Positions 7,871 through 51,910 of a DNA stretch of 64,000 nt are shown in pieces (positions within the stretch are counted from its first letter, which is position 1; each line of letters opens with the position of its first letter). The stretch is from Chiloscyllium plagiosum (lineage: Eukaryota). Where the stretch lies: assembly GCF_004010195.1 (NCBI RefSeq), contig NC_057729.1:37456999-37520998 (forward strand), given 5' to 3'. The notes below the pieces were generated by a model. It saw only the letters and a program-made list of their open reading frames with translations. It made no database searches and was not told the origin of the DNA. Both the position numbers and the translations under genes were made by a program.

Positions 7871-8370
7871 AAGCCAGTGGAGACGCAGGCAACTGAAGCA
7901 ATGAAGGATCCTTATTCAGGAATTTTCCCTGATTGTGGGGTCACAAGATCGCAGAGGCACAAGTGCGAAGCAACAGACATCAAAAGGCACTGAAAAGGGT
8001 GGTGATGTAGCTTTATCAGAAGTGTATTTGATCAGATAAGTGGGACAGAGCAGGAGCAATTAGGTAAACATGCAAGTATCTTTAGCTCTGCTGAGCTGAT
8101 TGGGTTACAGCAGAAAGCAGACAGTGAATACATCCCTGTGTATTATTACTTAACAAATAATGTCTTAATGAGGAAATGGAGACCATTGCACATTCAAGCA
8201 GATGAGAAATGGGCAGAGATTCATCAAATTGTTTTTTCCAGGATATATGAAGGACGTGCCGTGAGTGGTGCATGAGCAAAAATATGGAGGTAATTTAGGG
8301 GTGAGGAAAACACAGGCTAAAATACAAAGACATTTTTACTGGAGTACACAAGGATATAGTTGCATTTTTG

Positions 8371-10262
8371 GTGAAGGTGAGGACTACAGATGCTGGAGAT
8401 CAGAGTCAAGATTAGAGTGGTGCTGGAAAAGCACAGCGGGTCCGGCAGCATCCGAGGAGCAGGAAAATTGACGTTTCGGGCAGGAGCCCTTCATCAGGAA
8501 TGAGGCTGGGATGGAGAGATAAATGGGAGGGGAATGGGGCTGGGGAGAATATAGATAAGAGCGCAATAGGTGGATGGAGGTGTGGATAAAGGTGATAGGT
8601 CAGAGAGGAGGGTGGAGCAGATAGGTGTGAAGGAAGATTGGCAGGTAGGACAGGGCATGAGGATGGTGCTGAGCTGGAAGCTTGGAACTGGGGTAAGGTG
8701 GGGAAAGGGGAAATGAGGAAACTGGTGAAGTCCACATTGATGCCTTGGGGTTGAAGTGCTCCAAGGCAGAAGATGAGGCATTCTTTCTCCAGGCATTGAG
8801 TGGTGAGGGAGGAAGTGGCAAGTGGGAGGGGGAGTTGAAATGTTCAGCCACAGGGCAGTGGGGCTGATTGATGCGGGTGTCGCAGAGATGTTCCCTAAAG
8901 CACTCTGCAAGAAATCGTCCAGTCTCCCCAACATAAAGGAGACTGCATTGGGAGCAATGGATACAATAAATGACATTGGTGGATGTACAGGTGAAACTTT
9001 GTTGGGTGTGGAAGGCTCCTTTGGGGCCTTGGATGGAGGTGAGGGAGGAGGTGTGGTCACAAGTTTTGCAATTCCTGTGGTGGCAAGGGAAGATGCCAAG
9101 AGGGGCAGGTGTGTTGTTGGGAGGCATGGACCTGACAAGGTAGTCACGGAGGGAATGGTCTTTGCAGAATGCAAATAGGGGTGGGAGGGAAATATATCCC
9201 TGGTGGTGGGGTCCATTTGTAGGTGGCGGAAATGTCGTTGGATGATGTGGTTTATATGGAGGTTGGTGGGGTGAAAGGTGAGGACCAGGTGGTTCTGTCC
9301 TTATTGCGTTTGGAGGGGTGGAGTTTGAGGGCAGAGGTGCGGGACGTGGATGAGATGTGTTGGAAGGCATCTTTAACCATGTGGGAGGGAAAATTATGGT
9401 CTTTAATTTCCATAAAGAAGGAGACCATCTGGAGTGTTCTGTGGTGGAACTGGTCCTCCTGGAAGCAGATATGGCGAAGGCAGAGGAATTGGGAATATGG
9501 CGTAGCATTTTTGCAGGAGTAGGGTGGGAAAAGTTATGATTCAGGAAGTTATGGGAGTTGATGGGTTTGTAAAAAATGTCAGTGGTGAGTCGGTCGTCGT
9601 TGATGGAGATGGAGAGGTCCAGGAAGGGGAGGGAGGTGTCAAAGCTGGTCCAGGTGAATTTAAGGTTGGAGTGGAATGTGTTGTTGAAGTTGATGAACTG
9701 CTCAACGTCCTAGAGGGAGTATGAGGTGGCGCCGATGCAGCCATCAATGTAGCGGAGGAAGATGTGGGGAGTGGTACCAGTGTAACTACGGGACGTGGAC
9801 TGTTCTACGTAGCCAACAAAGAGACAGGCAAAGCTGGGGCCCATGCGGGTGCCCAGGGCTCCCCCTTTCGTCTGGAGGAAGTGGGAGGATTTGATGGAGA
9901 AATTGTTAAGGGTGAGGACCAGTTCAGCCAAATGCATGAGAGTGTCAGTGGAAGGGTACTATTGGGAGTGTTGGGAGAAGAAGAAACGGAGGGCTTGGAG
10001 GCCCTGGTCATGGTGGATGGAGATGTAGAGGGGTTGGATGCCTATGGTGAAGATGAGGCATTGGGGACTGGGGAAACAGAAGTCTTGGAGGAGGTAGAGA
10101 GCATGGGTGGTGTCTCGAACATATGCGGGGAGTTCCTGGACTAGGGGGGAATAGGACAGTATTGAGGTAGGTGGAGATGAGTTTGGTGGGGCAGGAGCAG
10201 GCTGAGACAATGGGTTGGCCGGGGTGGTCAGGTTTGTGGATCTTGGGAAGGAGCAGAGGGAG
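8371..10262 (-). mobile_element. Penelope-like element (Neptune-type), 5'-truncated, nested in the Gypsy integrase
   Basis: RT motifs GxAxGTRMGPSFACLF and FLRYIDG; Cys-rich linker CHHRNCKTC; GIY-YIG NVIYCIHCSQCSLLYVGETGR; 3' terminal repeat with a hammerhead core. A single N at 10266 marks an uncertain junction. Confidence 0.92.
8470..8497 (-). ncRNA. Minimal hammerhead ribozyme core of the PLE terminal repeat
   Basis: Minus strand reads CTGATGA-A-GGGC-TCCT-GCCC-GAAAC-GTC, the PLE-type minimal HHR with a palindromic ACGT stem III. Confidence 0.75.
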
Positions 10263-11239: not shown

Positions 11240-12491
11240 GATGCTGTTCCAATTAAACAGCATCCTTAAAGGCATAACCCTCTAAAGCTGGCACAGATTC
11301 AGAAGGAGATAGAGCGCATGCTCCAAGATGGCATAATTGAAGTGAGTTACAGTGACTGGAACTCACCCATAGTCATGGTGCCAAAGCCAGATGATACCCA
11401 ACGGTTATGTGTGGACTATCGCAAAGTCAGAACTGTTACAAAAACAGATGCAAAACCAATTCCACAGCTGGAGAATTGTGTCAAAAACGTGGGACAAGCA
11501 ACTTACATTTCGAAGTTGGACTTGCTCAGAGGCTACTGGCAAGTACCTCTGTCAGAGAAAGCAAAGGCAATTTTGGCTTTCCTAACGCCAAATGGACTAT
11601 ATCAGTTCAAAGTCATGCCATTTGATATGAAAAACGCTCCAGCCACATTTCAGAGACTGACTAATAAAGTCATTGCCGGATTCCCCAACTGTGTGATGTA
11701 CATTGATGACCTGGTGAATTTTAGTCAGTCATGGAAGGAACATTTACAGCATTTATCAGACATTTTCAATTGACTTCAGACGGCAGGCTTGGTGGTAAAC
11801 CTAGCTAAAAGTGAATTTGCCAAAGCCCAAGTCGCCTTTCTGGGCCATGTATTGGACATGGACAAATGGCCTCACGGGATGCAAAAACAAAATTAATTGA
11901 GGAATTTCCCACACTGTCAATGAAAAAAAAAAGTACTACGGTTCCTGGGATTGAGGGGATTTTTCCAAAGTTTGTGCTGAACTTTAGCAGTGTGGCTGCT
12001 CCACTCACCGAATTATTCAAAAAAGGCAAGAAGTTTCAGTGGACAGCTGACTGCCAAAAGGCATTTGACAGCCTAAAAACTGTGTTAACCTCTGCCCAGT
12101 ATTAGTCACACCTGTTTACACAAAGCCTTTCAAGGTGGCTATCAATGCCAGTGATGTGGGTGTCGATGCGATGCTCCTGCAGGAGGATGACGAGGGAATA
12201 GAAAGACCCACCGGGTATTTTTCCAGGAAGTTGAACATTGAGCAACAGAAATATTCAACGGTGGAGAAAGAGACTTTAAGCTTGGTGTTGGCATTACAAC
12301 ATTTCCATGTTTATATTACCAGCAATGCATCTGAGCAACACATTGTAGACACTGATCATAACCTATTGATATTTCTGGAAAAGTTTAAGGACAAAAATGC
12401 CAGACTGTTTAGATGGAGCTTACTTTTGCAGCCATTCAACTTGACAATTGTGCATGTGGCCGGTCGTGAAAATGTGATTGCCGATGCTTAA
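11240..12491 (+). pseudogene. Reverse transcriptase + RNase H relic
   Basis: WNSPIVMVPKPD, LCVDYRK, SKLDLLRGYWQ, MPFDMKNAPATFQR, YIDD; RNase H NASDVG...YSTVEKE...TDH. Confidence 0.92.
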
Positions 12492-21252: not shown

Positions 21253-21442
21253 TGAGAAAGTGAGGACTGCAGATGCTAGAGATCAGAGTTGAGTATGTGG
21301 TGCTGGAAAAAGCACAGCAGGTCAGGCAGCATCCAAGGAGCAGGAGAATCAGGAATGAGGTGATGAAGGCCTTATGCCTGAAACATTGATTCTCCTGCCC
21401 CTCGGATGCTGCCTGAACTGCTGTGTTTTTCTAGCACCACAC
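21253..21442. mobile_element. Fold-back PLE terminal-repeat insertion with decayed hammerhead core
   Basis: 14-bp TSD AATCTGTGAGACAG (21239-21252, 21443-21456); inverted arms; core TGATGAAGGCCTTATGCCTGAAACATT. Confidence 0.88.
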
Positions 21443-26105: not shown

Positions 26106-26227
26106 ATGTTTCCCTCAGATTATCTTTCGCTATTCCAAACTTTAATTAACTTGTCAAGTGCACTGCATGGCTTTAACATTTCCAGGGGTTTACTGATAAG
26201 CATTATTGAGCCTGTGCCAGAATACAT

Positions 26228-27981
26228 CTCAAGATTAGAGTGGTGCTGGAAAAGCACAACAGTTCAGGAAGCATCCGAGGAGCAGGAAAATCGACTTTCC
26301 GGGCAAAAGCCCTTCATCAGGAATAGAGGCAGGGTACCTGCAGAGTGGAGAGATAAATGAGTCAGGGGTGGGGGTGGGGAGAAAGTAGCAGGGAGTACAT
26401 TAGATGCANNNNNNNNNNNNNNNNNNNNNNNNNNNNNNNNNNNNNNNNNNNNNNNNNNNNNNNNNNNNNNNNNNNNNNNNNNNNNNNNNNNNNNNNNNNN
26501 NNNNNNNNNNNNNNNNNNNNNNNNNNNNNNNNNNNNNNNNNNNNNNNNNNNNNNNNNNNNNNNNNNNNNNNNNNNNNNNNNNNNNNNNNNNNNNNNNNNN
26601 NNNNNNNNNNNNNNNNNNNNNNNNNNNNNNNNNNNNNNNNNNNNNNNNNNNNNNNNNNNNNNNNNNNNNNNNNNNNNNNNNNNNNNNNNNNNNNNNNNNN
26701 NNNNNNNNNNNNNNNNNNNNNNNNNNNNNNNNNNNNNNNNNNNNNNNNNNNNNNNNNNNNNNNNNNNNNNNNNNNNNNNNNNNNNNNNNNNNNNNNNNNN
26801 NNNNNNNNNNNNNNNNNNNNNNNNNNNNNNNNNNNNNNNNNNNNNNNNNNNNNNNNNNNNNNNNNNNNNNNNNNNNNNNNNNNNNNNNNNNNNNNNNNNN
26901 NNNNNNNNNNNNNNNNNNNNNNNNNNNNNNNNNNNNNNNNNNNNNNNNNNNNNNNNNNNNNNNNNNNNNNNNNNNNNNNNNNNNNNNNNNNNNNNNNNNN
27001 NNNNNNNNNNNNNNNNNNNNNNNNNNNNNNNNNNNNNNNNNNNNNNNNNNNNNNNNNNNNNNNNNNNNNNNNNNNNNNNNNNNNNNNNNNNNNNNNNNNN
27101 NNNNNNNNNNNNNNNNNNNNNNNNNNNNNNNNNNNNNNNNNNNNNNNNNNNNNNNNNNNNNNNNNNNNNNNATTAATGGAGATGGAGAGGTCCAGGAAGG
27201 GGAGGGAGGTGTCAGAGATGGTCCAGGTGAATTTAAGGTCGGGGTGGAATGTGTTGGTGAAGTTGATGAATTGCTCAACCTCCTCGCGGGAGCACGAGGT
27301 GGCGCCAATGCAGTCATCAATGTAACGGAGGAAGAGGTGGGGAGTGGTGCCGGTGTGACTAGGGAAGATGGACTGTTCTACGTAGCCAACAAAGAGACAG
27401 GCATAGCTGGGGCCCATACAGGTTCCCATGGCTACCCTTTTTGTCTGGAGGAAGTGGGAGGATTTAAAGGAGAAATTGTTCAGGGTGAGGACCAGTTCAG
27501 CGAAACGAATGAAAGTGTCAGTGGAAGGGTACTGTTGGGGACATCAGGAGAGGAAGAAACAGAGAGCTTGGAGACCTCGGTCATGGCGGATGGAGGTGTC
27601 GAGGGATTGAATATCCATGGTGAATATGAGGCATTGGGAGCCGGGGAAACAGAAGTCTTGGAGGAGGTGGAGGGCGTGGGTGGTGTCTCGAACGTATGTG
27701 GGGAGTTCCTGGACTGGGGGAATAGGACAGTGTCAAGGTAGGTGGAGATGAGTTCGGTAGGGCAGGAGCATGCTGAGACAATGGGTCGGCAAGGGTGGTC
27801 AGGCTTGTGGATCTTGGGAAGGAGGTAGAATTGGGCGGTGCAGGGTTCCTGGAGGTTGGAAGCTGTGGGTGGGAGATCTCCTGAGGTGATGAGGTTCTGT
27901 ATGGTCTGGGTGATGACAGTTTGGTGATGGGGAGGTGGGGTCATGGTTGAGGGGGCTGTAGGAGGAGGTGTCTTCGAGTTA
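26228..27981 (-). mobile_element. Penelope-like element (Neptune-type), 5'-truncated, spanning an assembly gap
   Basis: RT MGPSYACLF...FLRYIDD; FYLLPKIHK; 11-bp TSD CCAGAATACAT (26217-26227, 27982-27992); mutated HHR core at 26293-26320. Confidence 0.92.
26409..27171. other. Assembly gap (763 N)
   Basis: Run of N. Confidence 1.
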
Positions 27982-28269
27982 CCAGAATACATTTGTTTAG
28001 TTTCCAAATGGAGGACCACAAGACAGGCACACTAAGACTAGAGGGTCTACGCAGATACAGGATCAATTTTTTAAGAATTCACCAGCAGCAGCTTCAACCC
28101 TTCTCGGTAGTCTCATGCATTAGGTTTATCTACATTCATGCTTTTAAATATACCTGATATCCGAATGGTCTCCTGACTGGTTTCTCACCAACTGCCCTAC
28201 ATAAAGGTCAGGGTATGTGAAACTCTGGTGCACATCCCTGAATTCATAAGTCTTGTTCACACATCACCC

Positions 28270-36523: not shown

Positions 36524-36607
36524 GCTGTCTCATGGCTATTTTCTGCACTGACCAGTTCAAAAAGAATGCTGTGGTACAACTTGCTGGAATTATGAGCTTG
36601 AGAGCAG

Positions 36608-37610
36608 CACAGTTAGGATAATTGGGTTTTCCTGGTACTCACAGTTAGGATAATGGGGTTTCCTGTTACTCACAGTTAGGATAATGGGTTTTTGTTACTC
36701 ACAGTTAGGATAATGGGGTTTTCTGTTACTCACAGTTAGGATAATGGGGTTTACTGTTACTCACAGTTAGGATAATGGGGCTTCCTGTTACTCACAGTTA
36801 GGATAATGGGTTTTTTGTTACTCACAGTTATTATAATGGGACTTCCTGTTACTCGCAGTTAGGATAATGGGTTTTCTGTTACTCACAGATAGGATAATGG
36901 GTTTTTTGTTACAGTTAGGATAACGGGGCTTCCTGTTACTCACAGTTAGGATAATGGGGCTTCCTCTTACTAACAGTTAGGATAATGGGGTTTCCTGTTA
37001 TTCACAATTAGGATAATGGGTTTTTTGTTACTCACAGTGGGGATAATGGGGCTTCCTGTTCCTCACAGTTAGGATAATGGGTTTTCTGTTACTCACAGTT
37101 AGGATAATGGGTTTTTTGTTACTCACAATTAGGATAATGGGGCTTCCTGTTACTCATAGTTAGGATAATGGGTTTTCTGTTACTTAAAGTTAGGATAATG
37201 GGTTTTTTGTTACTCACAGTTAGGATAATGGGGTTTTCTGTTACTCACAGTTAGGATAATGGGTTTTTTGTTACTCACAGTTATTATAATGGGACTTCCT
37301 GTTACTCGCAGTTAGGATAATGGGTTTTCTGTTACTCACAGTTAGGATAATGGGGTTTTCTGTTACTCACAGTTAGGGATAATGGGTTTACTGTTACTCA
37401 CAGTTAGAATAATGGGGCTTCCTGTTACTCACAGTTAGGATAATGGGGTTTTCTGTTACTCACAGTTAGAATAATGGGGCTTCCTGTTACTCACAGTTAG
37501 GATAATGGGGTTTACTGTTACTCACAGTTAGAATAATGGGGCTTCCTGTTACTCACAGTTAGGATAATGGGGTTTACTGTTACTCACAGTTAGGATAATG
37601 GGGTTTTCTA
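36608..37610. repeat. Minisatellite, ~31-bp unit, ~32 copies
   Basis: Unit CACAGTTAGGATAATGGGGTTTCCTGTTACT, with variation confined mostly to the G/T tract. Confidence 0.97.
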
Positions 37611-39070
37611 TTATTTTAGTTAATGCCAGGATCAACATTGCATTTCCTTAAAAAAAAAGAGGTTTTAGGATTGAGAAAGAAGGTCAGCACTGATGAAGAA
37701 GCAAAGCAAATCAGAGTGGGTGATTTAGTATAAAATTATTAAATGAAAAATTAAAGAGAAGAAAGATTGCATTGAGACAAAAGAAAAAAGAAGGAATGAT
37801 AAAATAAAAGTATACATGGATGAGAAACATAATTTAAATTGTTTCCATCCAACAGTTAAGCCACTGGTTGACACTGAGCTAACAATTACCTTTCATCAAA
37901 AGGTACTTTCATTCAATGACCAGATTTAACTTTGTGCTGAGTTTAGTATAAAGTAAAGTGAAAACACAAGTTCATAAAGATAATTGGGAGGCTAGGGGTG
38001 AAGCATAAGGAAAACAGTAGATGAGAACAAACACAAATTATGTAGATTCACAACTGAGATGAATCTTTTCATCCTGAAAAGTTGACTGATCAATTCACAT
38101 ATAGGCTTGTGTACCAGTTGTTAATTACTGACATGACCGAGCCCATGACAACAAGTGTGCAATATATATTTTTAACTGACTCTAAACATCATTGAAAGTT
38201 TCTTGTTGTCCTGCATACTACATTCACAACACATATAATTGCCATTTAATATCCAAAAGCCAACATGATAAACCTGGGGTTAGTGTAGCAAAATTGATTA
38301 TTTGTATCTATCCCTAAGCAGAACTGGTAATTTGAAACACAGTATGTACCAAAGAACTCTATGATCCTGGTTATTTCTTTTTAGGCTTCAATTTACCTTT
38401 AGTAATTGAGGAGAAATACGTTTGTATTATAAAAAGTTAACCAAAGTAAAAATGGTAAAACTTGCTTCCAAAATAATGTATTGGCATTTATAGAGAGTTT
38501 TATAAAATTAGAGAAATTACGACTGTCAGAAATACACTATGTCTAAGAATTGCAATACAGAGCACGATAATAGGATCACTATGTATTTGCAGAATGATCA
38601 ACAGAGAACATTTCCGACGTTGCAGCACTCCTTCAACAGCACGCTTAAGTATCAACTCACGGTCATATCACTAATATGTGGCATTGAGAATGCTACTATT
38701 TCTGGTTATAACGTTCTTGTGAAACCTTGGTCTATCTCCAAATACACAAACTGTCTGGTATTCCCTAAGTATCACAGTCAGTCAGGGAAATGATAACATT
38801 ACACTACCGTAGGAAATCATGTCAGATGATTAAATCATGTTAAAGCAAGAACAATGAGTTTCACTGGCAAATTAAAAAAAAGTTAAAGGCTAAGAAAACG
38901 GACTTACATTCATATAGCACCTGAGCACAATTCAGAGAGGTCTTAAAACACCTTTCACACGAGCAATTACATCATGTGTTTTTTTATTATTAGTGCATGA
39001 GCAAATGGCAGAGTTACTTCACTCAGAACTGGGTTCCACAAATAGCAAAATTAAAACTAAGGCTGTGTTA

Positions 39071-47000: not shown

Positions 47001-47084
47001 GAAGTAGGCCAAGGTCACTTGTCAAGTGCAACCTCTGTTCGGATATTAGTTAGAGAGGTGTACGGTGATCAGTCAGAAATCTAG

Positions 47085-47449
47085 AGTCAAGGGTGTGGTG
47101 CTGGAAAAGCACAGCAGGAATGGGTGAAGAGATGGAAATGTGTTGCTGGAAAAACGCAGCAGGTCAGGCAGCATCTAGGGAACAGGAGAATCATCCTGAA
47201 GAAGGGCTAATGCCCGAAACGTCGATTCTCCTGTTCCCTAGATGCTGCCTGACCTGCTGCGTTTTTCCAGCAACACATTTCCATCTCTGATCTCCAGCAT
47301 CTGCAGACCTCACTTTCTCCTCAAGGAATGGATGAAGGGTTTATGTCTAAAACATTGATTCTCCTGCTCCTTGGATGCTGCCTGATATGCTTTTCCAGCA
47401 CCCCATTCTCAACTCTGATCTCCAGCATCAACAGTCCTCATTTTCTCTT
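47085..47449 (+). mobile_element. Nested pair of fold-back PLE terminal-repeat insertions
   Basis: Outer TSD AGTCAGAAATCTAG (47071-47084, 47450-47463). Inner element 47130-47323 with TSD AGGAATGG(G/A)TGAAG (47116-47129, 47324-47337). Confidence 0.9.
47196..47223 (+). ncRNA. Intact minimal hammerhead core in the loop of a perfect 65-bp hairpin
   Basis: CTGAAGA-A-GGGC-TAAT-GCCC-GAAAC-GTC; arms 47128-47192 and 47224-47288 are exact reverse complements. Confidence 0.8.
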
Positions 47450-47629
47450 AGTCAGAAATCTAGTCAGCCATTGGTCAAGGCTCTACTTCTAAGTCAGTCA
47501 GAGGAGTGGGCCATGGTTGGACCTGGGCTTCTGACATTGTAAGTCAAGTGGATTATCGGGCTGTTACAATGATGGGCAAGGCTGACTTGTGACATCATCA
47601 CTGGCCAGCTGGAGCAAGACCTATAACCT

Positions 47630-50526: not shown

Positions 50527-51910
50527 GTCATAGAGTCAAGAAAGCAGACCTTTTGGTCCAACCAGACCATTTTGACCATAATCCCAAATGAAACTACTCC
50601 CACCTGCTGTGTTTGGCTCATATCCCTCCAAACATTTCCTATTCATGTACTTATCCAAATGTCTTTTAAATATTGTAACTGTAGCTGCATCCACCAATTC
50701 CTCTGGAAGTTCATTCCACATATGAACCACTCTGTAAAGAAAAATTGCCTTACGGCTTTGTAAAATCTTTCTCCTCTCATTTTAGGAATACACCTCCTAG
50801 ACTTGAAATTCTCCACCCTGGGGAAAAGACACCTGTCTTTTCACTTATCTGTACCCCTTATGATTTTATAAACCTCCATAAGGTTATCTCTCAACTTCCT
50901 ATGCTTCAGTGAGAGATATCTCAGCCGGAAGTTCATTCCACACATGAACCACTCTGTAAAGAAAAATTGCCTCACGGCTTTGTAAAATCTTTCTCCTCTC
51001 ATCTTAGGAATACACCTCCTAGACTTGAAATTCCCCACCCTAGGGAAAAGACACCTGTCTTTTCACTTATCTGTACCCCTTATGATTTTATAAACCTCCA
51101 TAAGGTTATCTCTCAACTTCCTATGCTTCAGTGAGAGATATCTCAGCCTATCCAGTCTTTTCTTATAACTCAAACCCTCCATTCCCAGCAACATCCTGGT
51201 AAATGTCTTCTGAACCCTTTCCAGCTTAATAATATCCTTCCTATAACAGGGCGAACAGAACTGGACATCTCAGAAGAGGCCTCACCAATGATCTGTAGAA
51301 CCTCAACATGACAGCCCAACTCCTCAAAGGTCTGAGCAACGAAGGCAAGCATGTTAAACACCTTCTTAACCATCTTATCTGTATGTGGTGCAAACTTCAA
51401 AGAATTATGTACTTGAAGTCTTGGGTGTCTCTGTTCTACAACACTGCCCAAGGTCCTACTTTTAATTAGATAAGTTTTATCTTTGTTTGCCTCACGTTTA
51501 TCCAAATTAAACTCCAATCAACATCTTCAGCCCATTGACCTAATTGATTAAGATTCCACACATGAACCACTCAGTCACTGTCTTCACTGTCCAGTGTAAC
51601 CACCAATCTTGGTAGCATCTGCAAATTTACTAACTATACTTTCTATATTCTCATATAAATCATTTATATGTATGACAAATAAAAGTGGATCCAGCACCAA
51701 TCCCTGTAGAACACTGCTGGTAACAGGTCTCAACTCTGTAAAACAATCCTCCACCATCACTCTCTGTCTCCTACCATTCAGCCAATTGTGTATTCAATTA
51801 GCAAGCTCACCCTGAATCCCATGTGATCTAACGTTACTAATTAGTCTACCATATGGAAGCTTGTCAAAGGCTTTACTGAATTACAAGTAAACAATGTCTA
51901 CCGCTTTGTC
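50527..51910 (-). mobile_element. CR1 LINE fragment containing a 222-bp tandem duplication
   Basis: CR1 RT/C-terminal motifs; units 50705-50926 and 50927-51148. Confidence 0.88.

Follow-up and report, generated by a model that had tools for sequence, protein, structure and literature searches.

A hammerhead core sits on top of a perfect hairpin at 47128-47288 of the window, that is, the whole 64-kb stretch of DNA analysed here, and the right arm of this hairpin begins at 47224, the first base past the GTC where the ribozyme is predicted to cut. The question raised by the locus is whether this coincidence keeps the trace of a self-cleaved RNA used as template, as proposed in a preliminary description of the sequence, or arises from another way of joining inverted copies. 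In Penelope-like elements (PLEs), the origin of head-to-head copies and the role of the hammerhead are both open questions (PMC3846280, PMC8557442, PMC11167929), and the tens of thousands of young copies of the present family form a natural record of insertion. The element is numbered from 47224, the first base 3' of the predicted cut, as +1, the first core base being -28.

Layout and history of the insertion

Recomputation confirmed the geometry given at first, with arms at 47128-47192 and 47224-47288 that are exact reverse complements (65/65), a loop of 31 nt, a right arm starting right after GTC and outward pairing that stops at the arm ends. The hairpin is the longest of three perfect inverted repeats in the window (arm of at least 14, loop of up to 120), the other two having 16-bp arms, and its predicted RNA fold has a z of -20, with equal stability in 0 of 200 shuffles. 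Regarding its origin, the hairpin is one young insertion of two head-to-head pLTR pieces of a PLE, so that the inverted terminal copy of a PLE repeat recognized at first corresponds to two pLTR pieces within one 14-bp duplication. The features of the locus, and of two related copies in the window, are the following.

47071..47463, no strand: older head-to-head pair of the same family, hosting the young pair in its junction (left arm about 47085-47118, right unit 47331-47447)
47116..47129, plus: left target-site duplication (TSD) of 14 nt, 13/14 identical to 47324-47337, its last 2 nt overlapping the arm
47128..47192, minus: inverted pLTR piece, element +1 to +65, without tail, from the inverted-repeat comparison
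47193..47195, plus: junction ATC, a probable reading from the sequence set against the listed junctions
47194..47321, plus: direct pLTR piece, -30 to +98, beginning at the initiator-like motif that is also the start of most short units, as judged from the family ends
47196..47223, plus: minimal type I hammerhead, read from sequence and fitting the description of minimal hammerheads in part of PMC4209133, predicted cut after C 47223
47289..47321, plus: one-sided tail, +66 to +98, about 33 nt, between two family 3'-end peaks, a tail being used as defined in parts of PMC8557442 and PMC11167929
47324..47337, plus: right TSD, 13/14 match to the left copy
8370..9709, minus: 3' part of an older autonomous-type copy, with the C-terminal part of the reverse transcriptase (RT), a CX4CxxC linker and a GIY-YIG region, then a pLTR with a sense hammerhead
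21254..21441, no strand: a further older head-to-head pair that has a 14-nt duplication, left arm aligning from +1, junction read directly

The older host pair carries its own 14-nt duplication at 47071-47084 and 47450-47463. The TSD of the young pair (47116-47337) has one mismatch despite the perfect arms. Those arms had been attributed to a young insertion or to gene conversion; the former holds, and the latter is not needed, because zero mismatches are seen in 26 of 57 young pairs (33/107 over all pairs). The junction ATC would consist of the commonest +1 junction of the family, a TC microhomology, plus a 3-nt duplication, or else of one extra base before a unit beginning at -30.

The layout of an inverted truncated pLTR, a one-sided tail and a TSD is already published, as is the minimal hammerhead, and the locus itself is an ordinary PLE stub. 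Pen2a_Av and other endonuclease-positive PLE units, as presented in parts of PMC3846280 and PMC8557442 (Fig. 2), have the same head-to-head, inverted and 5'-truncated pLTR, the same tail of 30-40 nt at one end, a TSD and a hammerhead in the pLTR; the window insert differs from these published units in having no ORF between the repeats and measuring about 195 nt in all. Two other types of insertion were rejected. In a LINE-1-type twin priming product a full overlap of the arms is not expected, and here they share all of +1..+65, and poly(A) is absent; in a non-LTR retrozyme the units are arranged in tandem, head-to-tail, and each contains a full hammerhead, whereas the window pair is head-to-head with the core on one arm only. 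A retrozyme preprint (bioRxiv 10.64898/2026.07.22.740005), in the part available, likewise concerns tandem units and not inverted pairs.

Among public contigs of this and a related species, none spans the hairpin, though both flanks are present. An assembly artefact is unlikely, because of the target duplication, the nesting in the older pair and the many sister pairs.

The element family and its hammerhead

The hairpin sequence matches about 10 places within the window. Exact matches in the 3.56-Gb genome number 81,382 for a 30-nt motif of the arm and 7,437 for the subfamily motif of the window copy, and head-to-head junctions of the family exceed 10,000. Regarding coding copies, besides the fragment at 8370..9709, an RT/nuclease frame at locus L088 is similar, with 101 nt between its end and a young hammerhead unit downstream, and is the young-subfamily counterpart. 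By motif reading alone, the arrangement of endonuclease-positive PLEs was found, with a sense pLTR and an RT followed by a C-terminal GIY-YIG nuclease with the CCHH motif, and a CX4CxxC linker was read upstream of the GIY-YIG motif both in the window (8600-9709) and at L088. Pfam gave no match on these two nuclease frames and only a sub-threshold RVT_1 match on another window copy. As a CX2-5CxxC zinc-finger linker between RT and nuclease marks Neptune/Nematis in the part of PMC8557442 that deals with these groups, the element would be, by the motif definitions of that paper, a Neptune/Nematis-type PLE, and the repeat its pLTR with a sense hammerhead. A literature search for shark Neptune elements returned none. 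Compared to Poseidon PAc of Anolis, the window family differs by its CX4CxxC linker of Neptune/Nematis; the two share a hammerhead that contains an ATG and lies close to the 5' end of the RNA (PMC11167929, in part, where inverted copies are not a subject).

The ATG within stem II of the hammerhead opens only a 26-codon frame. At L009 (1670-1890), L015 and L024, a frame resembling the start of the element ORF opens in the sequence beyond the tail, about 145 nt 3' of the predicted cut. A further copy of the PLE lies at 26200-28030 of the window (minus strand), with an assembly gap of 764 N inside and a weak RVT_1 match.

The hammerhead is composed of a CUGAAGA box, one extra A, a stem II of 4 bp, GAAA and a palindromic ACGU replacing stem III. 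By sequence, it possesses the conserved boxes, the G10.1-C11.1 pair, the extra base after position 9 and the palindromic 15.2-16.2. The minimal hammerheads found in metazoan PLEs, in the corresponding part of PMC4209133, likewise have CUGANGA and GAAA boxes, a base added behind position 9, a stem II closed by G-C, a palindrome at 15.2-16.2 and no stem III. These features of the window copy bear out the initial reading as a PLE pLTR with a minimal hammerhead, a weak stem I and a palindromic stem III. Among the sampled units, 181 hammerhead motifs were counted, with CGTC followed at the cut by GATT in 109. An Rfam scan of the hairpin gave no hammerhead family match, as would be expected for minimal PLE hammerheads; its only hits, sub-threshold miRNA hairpins, were rejected as generic stems. 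Pairs of hammerhead motifs on opposite strands, 100-700 bp apart, are also reported in part of PMC4209133.

Compared to those published motifs, the window copy has a stem II of 4 bp, and its inverted arm would offer a long stem I, but slipped. In the straight 65-bp hairpin, three extra bases separate stem I from the core, and according to the predicted fold, the hammerhead register needs a 3-nt bulge at +3.5 kcal/mol relative to the straight hairpin, with a pair probability of 0.003. The natural pLTR, with a stem I of only 2-4 bp, has a predicted register probability below 0.001, and the in-register sibling L219, with a plain TC junction, one of 0.98. The proposal that the inversion supplies a long stem I has, as regards a working stem, weak support at best, the active register being predicted at less than 1% in the window copy. 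In addition, stem III consists of the ACGU palindrome only, and a dimer is still required. In vitro, such minimal motifs had no monomer cleavage and low dimer cleavage, as reported in part of PMC4209133, and the hammerhead of an Anolis PLE cut only with protein, in the part of PMC11167929 on that element. The hammerhead of the window copy would be a passenger, with monomer cleavage predicted to be poor or absent.

An estimated 140 loci or so genome-wide have a perfect in-register stem I above 60 bp, L219 (near 1500) being an example; the estimate is made from 57 such joins among the first 100 of 250 listed +1 junctions. For a cleavage assay, these in-register loci would be more suitable than the window copy.

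Arms, tails and the probable priming from both strands

For the family statistics, units were sampled by motifs downstream of +25, hence blind to their 5' ends, taking most of the first 100 listed places of the arm motif and the first 100 of the subfamily motif, mostly in the first 40 Mb of contig C1. Of 230 units, 15 contained N and were removed, leaving 215 for the tally. The end tallies do not include the 30 loci of the first similarity search (L001-L030) or the junction-selected L191-L330; an arm-concordance table of 184 pairs also took in L001-L030 and L191-L250. Crude solo/inverted labels from the unit tally were not used.

The 3' ends of the units are bimodal, at about +60-67 and at +96-99. 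Accordingly with the layout of the window copy, 94 of 107 head-to-head pairs carry one tail, 11 none and 2 both. A flank match of 13-16 nt common to both sides was found in 66 of the 107, the TSD mode being 14-15. At subfamily-diagnostic sites, the arms are discordant in 7-10% of cases against 49-61% expected for random partners, and both arms therefore come from the same source. In 61 of the 94 one-tail pairs, the tail-less arm extends further 5' and each arm holds sequence that the other lacks; nested pairs resembling the window copy number 29 (61 vs 29, p = 0.001).

The reading that these data make probable is that the window hairpin is a young insertion in which both nicked strands primed reverse transcription on uncut RNA and the cDNAs were joined, its +1 start being most likely a coincidence of microhomology. 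According to this mechanism, the endonuclease would nick both target strands about 14-15 nt apart, one target 3' end starting a cDNA near +65 and the other near +98. Both cDNAs would run towards an RNA 5' end lying near -32, which is probably where transcription starts. The enzyme from +65 would usually lead, and the cDNA ends would anneal via microhomology of 2-3 nt or via a short templated patch. The reading is in line with the biochemistry of the Anolis PLE described in part of PMC11167929, where the protein nicks and extends both strands in vitro, two internal start sites bound the tail and uncleaved RNA is the main template. Poseidon PAc, in the same part of that paper, has the same two 3'-end sites about 33 nt apart bounding the tail and shows no sign of a cut-RNA template there. 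Several points weigh against this reading: the window pair has one arm wholly inside the other, which is compatible with fold-back; its junction needs a 3-nt duplication or an extra base; units starting at +1 outnumber those at +2 and -1; both pairs of the window align from +1; and RNA reads give no pile-up at the presumed transcription start.

LINE-1 twin or dual priming, as described in part of PMC2837659, is related by cDNA priming on both strands, inverted pieces within one TSD and a microhomology junction. The difference is that LINE-1 pieces do not overlap and the second primer falls at a chance site, whereas here both arms copy one stretch from two fixed starts. A search of open-access literature listings gave no paper in which twin or dual priming is applied to PLEs.

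The published account of head-to-head junctions in PLEs, in part of PMC3846280, invokes self-priming on an antisense template. In this alternative, one cDNA, or such an antisense template, snaps back via microhomology and copies itself into the inverted arm. It would explain why the left arm of the window copy is a subset of the right unit with identical sequence, and it fits the frequent junction microhomologies and palindromic centres and the 29 nested pairs of 94. It is nevertheless unlikely: fold-back of one cDNA cannot produce the 61 pairs with non-nested arms, it does not predict that the short arm ends at the +60-67 site also used by solo copies, and both outer ends adjoin a duplication of fixed length. 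The end statistics of the present family speak for priming from both strands rather than for the self-priming account.

Whether priming from both strands is also the default in PLEs, with two RTs, one per nicked strand, starting from the two tail-bounding sites on uncut, capped RNA, the +65 enzyme usually leading and reaching the transcription start and the +98 enzyme falling short of it, is a proposal for which the chances appear evenly divided. If true, a single step would account for the inversion of the pLTR, the tail on one side and the TSD of fixed length, the hammerhead would be irrelevant to integration, and the roughly 140 chimeric hammerheads whose stem I is perfect, in register and above 60 bp would be a by-product. 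The arm geometry makes a prediction that the PLE system already available in vitro can address directly. The value of the locus lies in the family statistics, which argue for uncut templates and two-strand priming.

The predicted cut among 5' ends and junctions

Among the 215 units, 35 have 5' ends far upstream, 5 at -59..-35, 98 at -34..-29, 64 at -28..-1, none at +1 (95% upper bound of 1.4%) and 13 further down. The peak sits on TCATTC (about -32), a motif 30-32 nt upstream of the cut that resembles an initiator. An internal promoter with an initiator (Inr) has been described for Penelope of D. virilis (part of PMC2377424). That the 5' ends lie about 30 nt before the predicted cut argues for uncut RNA as the integrated template. 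Similarly, BLAST ends place no arm start at +1 in 107 head-to-head pairs, and a strict junction parse allowing for microhomology found 1 of 36 pairs merely compatible with +1, after 19 of 55 pairs that stalled at subfamily variants were set aside. The first similarity search showed many +1 junctions but is query-biased, and was rejected as evidence on 5' ends.

Genome-wide, junctions counted by arm end amount to 8,603 at about -14..-27, 1,114 at +1..-12 and 482 at +18..+5, with single-position counts of 250 at +1, 104 at +2 and 103 at -2. The +1 junctions represent about 2% of the counted head-to-head junctions, an approximate share, as the search patterns differ in anchor. By hand count, the first 100 of the 250 listed +1 junctions comprise 57 TC-shared joins, 8 blunt joins to ATTCC and 7 CpG-decay-like ones, about 35 being neither of the simple TC form nor CpG decay, and the exact junction of the window is absent among these 100. 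Among the first 100 of the 1,114 listed junctions, 44 end at -5..-7 via a shared TT (hand count). In junctions free of inserts, microhomology of at least 2 nt was found in 14 of 23 against 3.6 expected (p = 1e-6).

Inverted junctions with short patches copied from nearby element sequence were seen at L032, L067, L086, L111, L144 and L154, suggesting repeated annealing and extension while joining.

A search for units with two transversion-type mismatches just upstream gave raw counts of 485 at +1, 132 at +2 and 236 at -1. These were rejected as a direct test, since the +1 pattern tends to pick up purine-rich inverted partners, and most of the units found at -1 are intact but for one base. As seen by inspection, an inverted partner with a purine-rich end passed the filter in 40 of 50 +1 units, and solos numbered 8/50 at +1, 11/31 at +2 and 4/30 at -1. 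The resulting solo estimates are 78 at +1 (35-141), 47 at +2 (25-72) and 31 at -1 (9-73), with overlapping intervals; L265, L275 and L310 read as misfiled solos, and their removal lowers the +2 and -1 neighbours slightly. A minor +1 excess, roughly twofold and amounting to no more than a few hundred units among about 81,000, may exist, and a small cleavage-derived class is possible.

The model of the preliminary description, in which hammerhead-cut RNA serves as template of the inverted arm and the cDNA runs off at +1, draws on the exact coincidence in the window copy, on the alignment of both window pairs from +1, on a +1 junction class larger than that at +2 or -2, on the roughly 35 joins of the first 100 listed that neither TC sharing nor CpG decay explains, and on a solo estimate about twice its neighbours. 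It is unlikely in the light of the same tallies, as +1 starts are lacking in all 215 units and 107 pairs, the +1 class stays below the TT-microhomology classes at -5..-7, the raw count of 485 is inflated by purine-rich partners and the solo intervals overlap. The pair at 21254..21441 is accounted for by a GAT jump, its left arm reading as a unit that would start at -36 and cross to +1 through that microhomology. Moreover, hammerhead mutants of the Anolis element left insertion unaltered and no reads ended at the cut, in the part of PMC11167929 on these mutants. The breakpoint tally that the preliminary description proposed leaves the breakpoint as the 5' end of a self-cleaved RNA unsupported, though a cleaved template keeps a small probability for the window copy taken by itself; breakpoints are not distributed at random either, as they cluster at the initiator-like motif and at microhomologies.

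A reading of the hairpin as a small non-autonomous unit that is copied as a whole, or as a ribozyme or hairpin RNA under selection and used by the host, is very improbable, in spite of its very stable predicted fold, of junction strings that recur many times and of the estimated 140 loci with an in-register long stem I, because recurrent junctions fall at microhomologies and on different subfamily backgrounds, the closest sibling (L002) differs from the window copy in junction and arm end, and the copy is young, lies inside another repeat and has its stem I out of register.

Regarding transcription, no RNA sequencing run was listed as containing the hairpin locus. Single-cell poly(A) reads from one run cover the family on both strands with no pile-up of starts or ends, many copies being passively transcribed and element transcripts inseparable from read-through.

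Other features of the window include a tandem array of units about 31 nt long (36590-37700), a head-to-tail duplication of 222 bp, 98% identical (50705-51148), and a reading frame at 11270-11773 that resembles a fragment of an LTR-retrotransposon reverse transcriptase.
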